Source: Longimicrobiales bacterium (lineage in GTDB: Bacteria; Gemmatimonadota; Gemmatimonadetes; Longimicrobiales; Gaopeijiaceae). From it: a DNA stretch of 64,000 nt. Location: contig JAWLHJ010000003.1 in the NCBI GenBank assembly GCA_041690395.1, positions 576,001-640,000 on the forward strand, given 5' to 3'. The notes beneath the pieces are model-generated. The model saw only the letters and a program-made list of their open reading frames with translations. It had not been told where the DNA came from and ran no database searches. A program made the translations under genes and the position numbers. Shown piece by piece: positions 36,639-58,143 of this stretch; position 1 is the stretch's first letter; every line of letters begins with the position of its first letter.

Positions 36639-36668
36639 TTGACAACGGCAACCGACCGCGGCGATGGT
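36639..36668 (+). promoter_or_regulatory. Sigma70-type promoter for the aroF leader
   Basis: TTGACA (36639-36644), 18-bp spacer, GATGGT (36663-36668), then 6 nt to the leader ATG. Confidence 0.6.
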
Positions 36669-36674
36669 AGCGAC

Positions 36675-36752
36675 ATGGATCGCGCACTCACCCACGGCTA
36701 CTGGTATTACGCTCGCCCCCTCCCGGGAGCAGGCGTCCTCGTGCGCGACTGA
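36675..36752 (+). CDS. Aromatic-amino-acid attenuator leader peptide MDRALTHGYWYYARPLPGAGVLVRD
   Basis: YWYY cluster at 36699-36710 upstream of a terminator and aroF. Confidence 0.8.
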   Translation: MDRALTHGYWYYARPLPGAGVLVRD

Positions 36753-36778
36753 GCCACAGTCCCTACCGCGACGCTTCG

Positions 36779-36808
36779 AAGCTCCCGACCTGGTCGGGGG
36801 CTTTTTTT
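36779..36808 (+). terminator. Intrinsic attenuator terminator upstream of aroF
   Basis: AAGCTCCCGAC-CTG-GTCGGGGGCTT stem followed by a T-tract. Confidence 0.85.
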
Positions 36809-36854
36809 GTGCCTTCGAGCAACGGGACCCGAGCGCCAAATCAAAGGAAGCTAC

Positions 36855-37904
36855 ATGATCATCGTCACCGTGCCGGGCGCCACAGACGCCCAGATCGACC
36901 ATATCAGGGAGCGCGTGGAAGCCGCGGGGCTCCGCACCCACCTCTCCCGAGGGGAGCACCGCACCGTCATCGGCTGCGTCGGCGACGAGGTGCTCCTCCA
37001 GAACGTACCGCTCCTGTCGATTCCAGGTGTCGACACCGTGCACCCGGTTTTGAAGCCCTACAAGCTCGCCTCGCGTGAGTTCGTCGCCGAGGCCACCCGC
37101 ATCCCCCTCGGTGCCGGCGAGCTGGGCGGTCCCGAGGTGCTCGTCATCGCAGGACCTTGCTCCGTCGAAGGGCCGGAGATGCTGTCCCGCACGGCGGAGC
37201 GGGTCGGCGCCGCGGGCGCCGGAGCGCTCCGAGGCGGCGCCTTCAAGCCGCGTACGTCGCCGTACTCCTTCCAGGGCCTCGGAAAGCGGGGCCTCGAGCT
37301 GCTCGCCGAGGTACGCGAGCAGACGGGACTCCCCGTCGTCACCGAAGTCATGGACACGCGCCAGGTCGAGCTCGTCGCGTCGTACGCCGACGTCCTGCAG
37401 ATCGGCGCGCGGAACATGCAGAACTTTCCGCTGTTGACCGAGGTCGGCCGGCTCCGGCGCCCGGTGCTCCTCAAGCGCGGCCTGTCCGCCACGCTGAAGG
37501 ATCTCCTCCTGGCCGCCGAGTACGTGATGAGCCAGGGGAACCCCAACGTCATCCTCTGCGAGCGGGGCATCCGCACGTTCGGCACCGAGACCCGGAACAC
37601 CTTCGACCTGGCGGCGATTCCCGTGCTGAAGCGCGAGACGCACCTCCCGGTCATCGCCGACCCGTCCCATGCCGGAGGACGCAGCCATCTCGTGCCCGCG
37701 CTGAGCTACGCGGCGGTGGCCGCCGGTGCGGACGGCCTGATGATCGAGGTGCACCCGGATCCCGAGAACGCGACCTCGGACGGCGATCAGTCGCTCGACT
37801 TCGACGCGTTCGACGCGCTCATGGACGGGCTTCGTCCCTTCGTGGACGCGGCGGGCAGATCGCTCCGCTCCGCTTCGATCCGCTCGGCGGCGAGCGCGAG
37901 CTGA
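36855..37904 (+). CDS. aroF: DAHP synthase type I-beta with N-terminal regulatory domain
   Basis: [43 protein letters not shown]. Confidence 0.93.
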
Positions 37905-57799: not shown

Positions 57800-57834
57800 G
57801 AGAAAGCCCCGCGGACCAGGTGGCCCGCGGGGCT
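57800..57834 (-). terminator. Terminator downstream of tRNA-Asn
   Basis: AGCCCCGCGG / CCGCGGGGCT stem followed by TTCTC. Confidence 0.7.
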
Positions 57835-57843
57835 CTCGCATTA

Positions 57844-57916
57844 CTGGGGCGGGAGGGTTCGAACCTCCAACCTCCTGGTTAACAGCCAGGCGCTCTGCCG
57901 GTTGAGCTACACCCCA
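57844..57916 (-). tRNA. tRNA-Asn (GTT), CCA not encoded
   Basis: 73-nt cloverleaf: TGGGGTG/CGCCCCA acceptor stem, GCTC/GAGC D stem, CCTGG-CTGTTAA-CCAGG anticodon arm, GGAGG-TTCGAAC-CCTCC T arm, G73. Confidence 0.97.
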
Positions 57917-57973
57917 TACGCTTGGCGGGTTCGTGCCGATGACCCCCGCCGATCGACACTCCCCCACCAACGC

Positions 57974-58007
57974 AAAACGGCCGCGATCCCCTGGGGACCG
58001 CGGCCGT
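57974..58007 (-). terminator. Attenuator-type terminator between the Asn-rich leader and tRNA-Asn
   Basis: ACGGCCGCGGTCCC-CAG-GGGATCGCGGCCGT stem running into a U4 tract. Confidence 0.8.
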
Positions 58008-58030
58008 CTCGTCGTTCCGATTTCGTTCGG

Positions 58031-58108
58031 CTACGCGAGTCCGCGGTCGCAGTCCCCATTGGGATTGCGATTCATATTCGGATTCGAGTTGCCGCGCGTG
58101 TTGTTCAT
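58031..58108 (-). CDS. Asn-rich leader peptide MNNTRGNSNPNMNRNPNGDCDRGLA, putative attenuator of tRNA-Asn
   Basis: 8 of 25 codons are Asn (3 AAC, 5 AAT); ATG lies 6 nt after a -10 box; its 3' half is complementary to the terminator 5' arm. Confidence 0.78.
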   Translation of the reverse strand: MNNTRGNSNPNMNRNPNGDCDRGLA

Positions 58109-58114
58109 GCACCG

Positions 58115-58143
58115 ATTATCACGAGGAGGGTCCGATCCGTCAA
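58115..58143 (-). promoter_or_regulatory. Sigma70-type promoter for the leader/tRNA-Asn transcript
   Basis: TTGACG (58143-58138), 17-bp spacer, GATAAT (58120-58115). Confidence 0.8.

Follow-up and report, generated by a model that had tools for sequence, protein, structure and literature searches.

Organization of the tRNA-Asn locus

In the window (the whole stretch of 64,000 nucleotides that was analysed, from the Longimicrobiales genome G000), ARAGORN and Rfam agree on a single tRNA gene, a tRNA-Asn(GTT) at 57844-57916 on the minus strand. Rfam, which scores this gene at 70 bits, matches nothing else in the window, and no match to a T-box motif or specifier stem was obtained there. The initial annotation had placed in front of this gene a promoter, a leaderless ATG, a 25-codon ORF with eight Asn codons, a set of competing helices and a terminator, and every one of these elements was recovered in its place. 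The gene upstream of the leader is moaA, and the features of the locus are as follows:

58138..58143, minus strand: -35 hexamer TTGACG (sequence and promoter consensus scan)
58115..58120, minus strand: -10 hexamer GATAAT, 17 nt from the -35 hexamer (promoter consensus scan)
58031..58108, minus strand: leader ORF of 25 codons with 8 Asn codons (5 AAT, 3 AAC) and an N-x-N-x-N run
58061..58070, minus strand: segment 1, overlapping the conserved Asn codons and pairing with segment 2
58041..58057, minus strand: segment 2 with its alternative register, pairing with segment 1 or with the 5' arm of the terminator (antiterminator)
57974..58007, minus strand: terminator hairpin, segments 3:4, with a U4 tail
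57922..57950, minus strand: hairpin in the 5' spacer of the pre-tRNA, present in the host's genus and missing where the tRNA directly follows the terminator
57844..57916, minus strand: tRNA-Asn(GUU), the divergent "type 2" isodecoder (ARAGORN and Rfam)
57800..57835, minus strand: terminator-like inverted repeat just 3' of the tRNA (sequence)

The ATG of the leader ORF, at 58108, lies 6 nt past the -10 box and the stop codon occupies 58033-58031; we infer that transcription starts at or adjoining the ATG and that the transcript is leaderless. Segment 2 proper corresponds to 58057-58047 and the alternative segment to 58048-58041. The leader promoter is the only consensus match between 56500 and 59500 (one found, 0.3 expected), and consensus scans gave no promoter after the stop codon of the leader ORF or between the terminator and the tRNA, in agreement with the single promoter on which the initial annotation relied. 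A simple terminator scan missed the terminator hairpin because its U tract has only four U. As a terminator-like inverted repeat lies directly 3' of the tRNA, the tRNA is probably the sole gene of its transcription unit. Among the neighbours listed, the genes downstream of the type-2 tRNA vary between relatives, and a leader serving a downstream protein gene was rejected on account of this variation and of the hairpin that follows the tRNA. In RNA run X4, one adapter-bounded contig of 165 nt covered 57831-57966 (spacer, tRNA and trailer) at a depth of 5, the leader being uncovered; of the RNA runs compared, none shared more than 0.12 of sequence words, and these reads speak neither for the switch nor against it.

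The leader ORF and its asparagine codons

Asn accounts for 1.8% of codons in the 1709 long ORFs of the genome and for 8 of 24 codons in the leader (binomial P 7e-9, calculated post hoc for this single ORF), and only four short Asn-rich ATG ORFs occur in the whole genome of 4.3 Mb. When 24 leaders were aligned, Asn was found at codon columns 11, 13 and 15 in 23, 24 and 22 of them, respectively, and the codons between varied. AAT makes up 83 of the 117 Asn codons of these 24 leaders, as against 10.5% in the long ORFs of this genome. A -35-like hexamer is located 35-36 nt ahead of the start codon in 24 of the 26 leader loci tested. What is conserved is a short upstream ORF enriched for the codons of one amino acid, and these are kept as codons. 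The leader of G237 (L084) has an intact promoter, helices and terminator, with Asp mostly replacing the Asn codons; this decayed form with one Asn, from an assembly that is 69% complete and has a partial gatB, was scored negative in the leader counts.

Folding of the leader RNA and predicted switch

Folding of the leader gave a z-score of -6.6 against 200 shuffled sequences, with energies of -12.7 kcal/mol for helix 1:2, -27.0 kcal/mol for the 2:3 duplex and -28.9 kcal/mol for helix 3:4. The three helices proposed in the initial annotation are present and covary in relatives, as judged from the alignment of 24 leaders. In the 3:4 terminator, 96.6% of cells are paired and 7 of 14 pairs are altered on both sides; when pooled, helices 1:2 and 3:4 show 89.5% pairing, and 9 of their pairs are altered on both sides. 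The 2:3 helix is 87.5% paired (23 distinct rows) and its covariation exceeds that of all 500 shuffles and is about twice that of slid controls, a comparison tilted towards the real register because the tested structure was taken from the sequence of the window itself; just 3 of its 12 pairs are altered on both sides. The 2:3 duplex beats shuffled sequences at P<0.05 in 18 of 24 leaders. The leaders therefore combine, in a conserved structure, a terminator with a mutually exclusive antiterminator. Helix 1:2 is 77.5% paired across leaders, and as 2:3 outcompetes it at equilibrium when no ribosome is present, the classical model would need kinetic effects to account for an off state in untranslated RNA.

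The effect of a translating ribosome was modelled by constrained folding, in which the ribosome is a blocked stretch with an assumed footprint. For the leader of the window, the model predicts that the antiterminator can form with the A-site codon at or before codon 17, which is the last Asn codon, and not from codon 18 onward. With a footprint of +9, all 24 leaders are predicted to switch between one codon before (-1) and two codons after (+2) the last Asn; over three footprints from +7 to +12 the range widens to -2 to +4 codons. In this folding model the placement of the Asn codons would allow a stalled ribosome to free segment 2 and a passing ribosome to cover it in all 24 leaders.

These data bear on the notion that there is no working switch at all, the hairpin being a constitutive terminator that releases a small RNA or a peptide and the tRNA being made from elsewhere. 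The short U tract, the weakness of 1:2 relative to 2:3 at equilibrium and the fact that transcript ends were not observed would be in line with it. However, the 2:3 helix covaries, the switch point falls at the last Asn, the peptide varies while its Asn codons stay fixed, consensus scans found no second promoter, and relatives in genus g83 that have no leader retain the leader promoter immediately ahead of the tRNA, so that we consider such a constitutive arrangement highly improbable.

Distribution of the leader among relatives

Loci of the type-2 tRNA were taken from the matches listed when sets of 41 and 251 genomes were searched (124 weaker matches lie outside). Counting only family loci for which 250 nt or more of upstream sequence was available, the leader precedes 25 of 104 type-2 tRNAs and is spread over 10 of 34 genera, the related genomes not being independent in these counts; conservation of the Asn-rich upstream ORF in relatives, on which the initial annotation had staked its reading, is thereby borne out. 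G003 also carries the leader. Because 79 of the 104 family loci are without it, leader control of the type-2 tRNA is apparently optional. The leader stands behind differing upstream genes in relatives, the commonest of which we take, from its sequence, to be malate-dehydrogenase-like. In genera g12 and g9 the tRNA begins within about 12 nt of the hairpin, which leaves no room for an intervening promoter.

In two other families, diverged Asn-rich ORFs precede 11 of 26 and 3 of 7 type-2 loci (14 of 33, one loose Asn-ORF match being left out of the counts); most are followed by a U-tailed hairpin and their promoter spacing is less uniform. In a third family, none of 4 type-2 loci has a leader. 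A collection-wide search for the leader pattern gave 19 matches, all in Gemmatimonadota or its sub-taxa including Longimicrobiales; the same tRNA lies in the locus for 16 of them and the other three end at a contig edge. Among 151 family genomes, all 17 matches to the covariance model above 60 bits stand before a type-2 tRNA, and the possibility that the same leader family precedes other genes was discarded, the weak matches being terminators or His and Met/Thr leaders. A quick tree of GlnRS from 41 family genomes, built without G014 and genus g6, places its 16 leader-bearing genomes together; their branch (SH-aLRT 99) also holds a single leaderless genome.

Some of the leaderless type-2 upstream regions are parts of elements inserted into the tRNA. 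Elements integrate repeatedly into the type-2 tRNA-Asn gene, a hot spot that they split at the anticodon loop (L145-L149, L151-L158; L324), and in several genera the intact type-2 copy carries the inserted element's upstream DNA. In G345 the 3' end of the type-2 tRNA is broken. G014 possesses two type-2 tRNA-Asn genes (L011 and L105), one with and one without leader.

Other leaders in this lineage

A scan of the whole genome for a -35-like hexamer followed by a leaderless short ORF and a terminator was passed by 23 of 1645 ORFs, and three of these combine TTGAC with an amino-acid-rich ORF, namely the hisG leader, the DAHP synthase leader and the tRNA-Asn leader. The aromatic leader lies in the window at 36640-36810 on the plus strand and consists of a leaderless ORF of 25 codons, among them three for Tyr as well as His and Trp codons, and a U-tailed hairpin; the DAHP synthase gene follows at 36807-37904, and this leader is likely an aromatic amino-acid attenuator. 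The His leader (G000:C2:746916-747200, plus strand) is leaderless, His-rich and followed by a terminator, and precedes a gene that we named hisG from its sequence. In G080 (L211), a His leader before what is presumably a hisG-like gene scores against the Asn-leader covariance model, which suggests a common origin of the Asn and His leaders. The same model picked a Met/Thr-rich leader with a terminator at L192 (G339:C9:314136-314301), before a gene that we take to be homoserine-dehydrogenase-like.

Because the same layout precedes hisG and the DAHP synthase gene, the tRNA appears to stand where this lineage would otherwise place a biosynthetic gene. Strong support for the attenuator reading of the initial annotation comes from conservation and covariation, from the leaderless geometry and the position of the switch point, and from the look-alike leaders before hisG and DAHP synthase; the attenuator itself is very probably real.

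Two tRNA-Asn isodecoders

G000 possesses two tRNA-Asn(GUU) genes. The canonical one, type 1, is located at C1:235595 behind a bare promoter, and type 2 differs from it at 22 of 73 positions. Type 2 has U1-A72, G2-C71, G3-C70 and G73, nucleotide 20a is absent and CCA is not encoded. None of 52 type-1 loci (30 + 22) has the attenuator leader; at 3 of the 30 there are unrelated TTG-started ORFs with a few Asn codons. A screen of all tRNA genes for upstream ORFs rich in the cognate codon, which had been proposed with the initial annotation, was positive for the type-2 tRNA-Asn and revealed nothing comparable elsewhere among the 49 tRNAs of the genome. A 17-tRNA array at G000:C1:919395-922679, which has a similar order in relatives (L019, L023, L028), is without tRNA-Asn.

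Type 2 is identical to the tRNA-Asp of G000 at positions 2-71, 3-70, 6, 26, 27-43 and 44. Eleven of the 22 differences between the two tRNA-Asn types match tRNA-Asp and nine go the opposite way. With identities of 50/73 to tRNA-Asp and 51 to type 1, a type 2 that is globally tRNA-Asp-like is ruled out by this overall identity together with the nine opposite differences. According to the accessible text of PMC9976931, G2-C71 is a minor and C38 a strong Asp determinant, and AsnRS recognizes G34, U35, U36 and G73; C38 is found in the type-2 tRNA of five genomes (G191, G233, G246, G334, G336). In the part of PMC1635274 that was available, amidation requires U1-A72 and the absence of nucleotide 20a, which is an antideterminant for GatCAB. 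Both tRNA-Asn types of G000 have U1-A72 and lack 20a; since type 1 also has U1-A72, these requirements of GatCAB do not exclude it. The extra D-loop nucleotide 20a occurs in type 1 of ten genomes (G318, G343, G339, G334, G336, G348, G338, G088, G060, G025), four of which also hold type 2, and type 2 is without 20a in 13 matches.

Although far removed in sequence from type 1, type 2 hardly varies within the family, and its A15-U48 pair and its D and T loops, which are not Asp-like, are unlike those of both type 1 and tRNA-Asp. These same features could be taken to mean that the switch is real and that type 2 has a task other than decoding on the ribosome, handing Asp or Asn to some other tRNA-dependent transferase. 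No partner gene for such a transferase was seen beside the tRNA among the neighbours listed, however, and the joint loss of type 2 with gatB described below points to amidation, which makes a role of this kind scarcely probable.

Genes of the indirect asparagine route and their co-occurrence with type 2

The genome of G000 (98% complete) contains asnS, one aspS, gatB and gatA, and a GlnRS-YqeY fusion, whose GlnRS we recognized from its sequence. AsnA and a real AsnB were not found in G000; a weak AsnB match is presumably a different, MnmA-like enzyme, judging from its sequence. With GatCAB (seen as gatA and gatB) and GlnRS present and AsnA and AsnB absent, G000 has the gene set of tRNA-dependent Asn synthesis. 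There is no Asn-rich leader before asnS or the gat genes, a loose ORF with two Asn codons lying 500 nt before aspS.

Family genomes were picked by tRNA status and gatB was then counted. It passes the cut-off in 56 of 59 genomes with type 2, the other three having partial matches, and in 1 of 25 near-complete genomes with type 1 only. On the GlnRS tree the joint absence of type 2 and gatB requires 4 changes, at least 3 of them forced by branches with support of at least 95. In 86 genomes of the class, from an evenly drawn phylum sample, type 2 occurs in 50 of 69 gatB-positive and 1 of 17 gatB-negative genomes, two genomes being without any tRNA-Asn match and one counted type 2 having a broken 3' end. 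Nineteen gatB-positive genomes of the class lack type 2; of the five near-complete ones checked, two have GlnRS and three are without it, and in these three gatB would be kept because GlnRS is missing and GatCAB is needed for Gln. Exceptions are G090 with gatB and no type 2, and G298 with type 2 and no full gatB match. Both gatB and type 2 are lost in G074, G120, G075, G070, G076 and related near-complete genomes. In five genomes without type 2 and gatB, AsnB-like genes are present in four and AsnA in none; G075 may need outside asparagine, as it has neither AsnA nor an AsnB-like gene.

Two other associations were considered and rejected. Absence of the leader does not go with absence of AsnRS, asnS passing the cut-off in 78 of 80 genomes (and being present in all 5 of those looked at from other classes), nor is it tied to the absence of AsnB, AsnB-like domains occurring in 15 of 29 leader-bearing or probable genomes versus 33 of 51 others (no association).

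The Asp-type acceptor stem and the C38 variants would also suit a valve that lets ribosomes move at the expense of fidelity, type 2 carrying Asp to Asn codons during Asn starvation, and induction only upon stalling would fit as well. Against this, type 2 keeps U1-A72 and lacks 20a, the two features needed for amidation in the available part of PMC1635274, and it vanishes together with gatB, the opposite of what a valve free of GatCAB predicts; such a valve is accordingly very unlikely.

Features of AspRS

We assume that the variable residue of the RRRD-L/H-G motif and the RPEG loop govern discrimination by AspRS. In PDB alignments this residue is Leu in tRNA(Asp) ligases and His in the tRNA(Asp/Asn) ligase 4wj3. 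The AspRS of G000 has Leu at this position, yet its RPEG loop is common to the non-discriminating 4wj3, and because this second loop is kept, the enzyme may charge type 1 too. In the class, 16 of the 17 AspRS sequences read have Leu, and the exception with His, G362, is without type 2. In other classes AspRS has His in 13 of 13 sequences, and no type 2 was found in 15 genomes, 7 of which gave no tRNA-Asn match to the search pattern. A wider proposition can be framed for the class Gemmatimonadetes, in which a near-discriminating AspRS would leave a dedicated, Asp-mimicking tRNA-Asn isodecoder as the sole efficient route into GatCAB, placed under a leader-peptide attenuator as a biosynthetic operon would be; we would give it even odds.

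Proposed function of the attenuator

Our preferred reading, to which we assign a probability of roughly 0.65, is that the attenuator gates a dedicated substrate of AspRS and GatCAB and thus asparagine synthesis. When asparagine is available, AsnRS would charge the canonical tRNA, the ribosome would reach the stop codon and cover segment 2, and the terminator would form. In a shortage of Asn-tRNA, the ribosome would stall on the N-x-N-x-N run, 2:3 would form and RNA polymerase would read into the type-2 tRNA. AspRS, aided by the Asp-type acceptor stem, would load type 2 with Asp, GatCAB would amidate this Asp by way of U1-A72, and the new Asn-tRNA would lift the stall. Asp-tRNA(Asn) carries a risk of mistranslation, and such control would let it arise only when it is needed.

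The initial annotation had proposed that a tRNA tunes its own abundance. The attenuator part of this proposal stands, and the purpose it assigned is probably incomplete in view of a second, canonical tRNA-Asn and of a gated isodecoder that follows GatCAB. As the canonical gene has a bare promoter and the gated isodecoder tracks GatCAB, asparagine synthesis on the tRNA is the more likely output, rather than decoding capacity alone. A plain feedback on supply would treat type 2 as an ordinary extra decoder charged by AsnRS, which the attenuator adds when Asn codons are read slowly; type 2 does keep the AsnRS determinants G34, U35, U36 and G73 named in the accessible text of PMC9976931, and AsnRS is nearly ubiquitous (78 of 80 genomes). 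But supply feedback leaves unexplained both the repeated loss of type 2 with gatB and type 1's constant want of a leader, offers no account of the lack of comparable cognate leaders among the rest of the 49 tRNAs, and would add uncharged tRNA, which presumably cannot cure a lack of asparagine. We therefore regard it as unlikely.

Relation to known systems

Leader-peptide attenuation is textbook control of protein-coding operons, with transcription attenuators such as trpL, hisL, thrL and pheM-pheST controlling amino-acid operons. The locus described here resembles these in its short ORF rich in one amino acid, its mutually exclusive 1:2, 2:3 and 3:4 helices and its intrinsic terminator, and differs from them in that a tRNA is gated, Asn is sensed, the transcript is predicted to be leaderless and no Rfam family matches. 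Enzymes of the indirect Asn route in C. acetobutylicum are reportedly under a T-box that senses tRNA charging (a study of 2012). In both cases an RNA sensor of tRNA charging would control the indirect Asn route, but in C. acetobutylicum the enzymes are controlled and the sensor is a T-box, whereas here the tRNA substrate would be gated by a leader peptide. For clostridia, predictions of T-box leaders ahead of some tRNA genes are also said to exist. A leaderless sensor ORF and a stalling ribosome are shared with the mycobacterial polycysteine leaderless short-ORF attenuators, as far as the accessible text on them goes (bioRxiv 10.1101/834739); those free the ribosome-binding site of a protein gene, whereas here a terminator would gate a non-coding RNA.

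The literature search, beyond whose reach most subscription papers lay, returned no account of leader-peptide control over a tRNA gene or of a dedicated tRNA-Asn isodecoder, and the accessible portions of PMC2494555 and PMC4695836 do not mention regulated tRNA genes. Judged from sequence, the mechanism would be of a known kind, and the tRNA target and the link to an isodecoder appear new within the literature searched. A tRNA as output would extend such attenuation to a stable RNA. If the wider proposition for the class holds, the locus would provide the first instance of a tRNA gene controlled by leader-peptide attenuation and the first case in which non-discrimination is encoded in a regulated tRNA and not in a synthetase; the type-2 tRNA would be in effect the asparagine-synthesis gene. 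The isodecoder result bears on the way in which bacteria that have AsnRS as well as GatCAB restrict a risky indirect route to times when it is required, suggesting control of a specialised tRNA, and the locus offers a short testable system of one tRNA pair, one AspRS, one GatCAB and a 140-nt leader.

tRNA-dependent Asn synthesis has been shown in Bdellovibrio with the same gene set (PMC4206432) and is stated for Thermus and Deinococcus (PMC2330236), in the parts of these papers that were available. As in these bacteria, AsnRS, GlnRS and GatCAB occur in G000 without AsnA or AsnB, and Asn would be made on a tRNA-Asn with U1-A72; they employ a relaxed or a second AspRS with an ordinary tRNA-Asn, whereas here a second isodecoder appears to carry the specialisation. 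The GlnRS of G000 with a C-terminal GatB/YqeY domain is encoded at G000:C7:158622-161183 (no such match in genus g6), and a GlnRS of this type is described for Deinococcus in the accessible text of PMC1865053.
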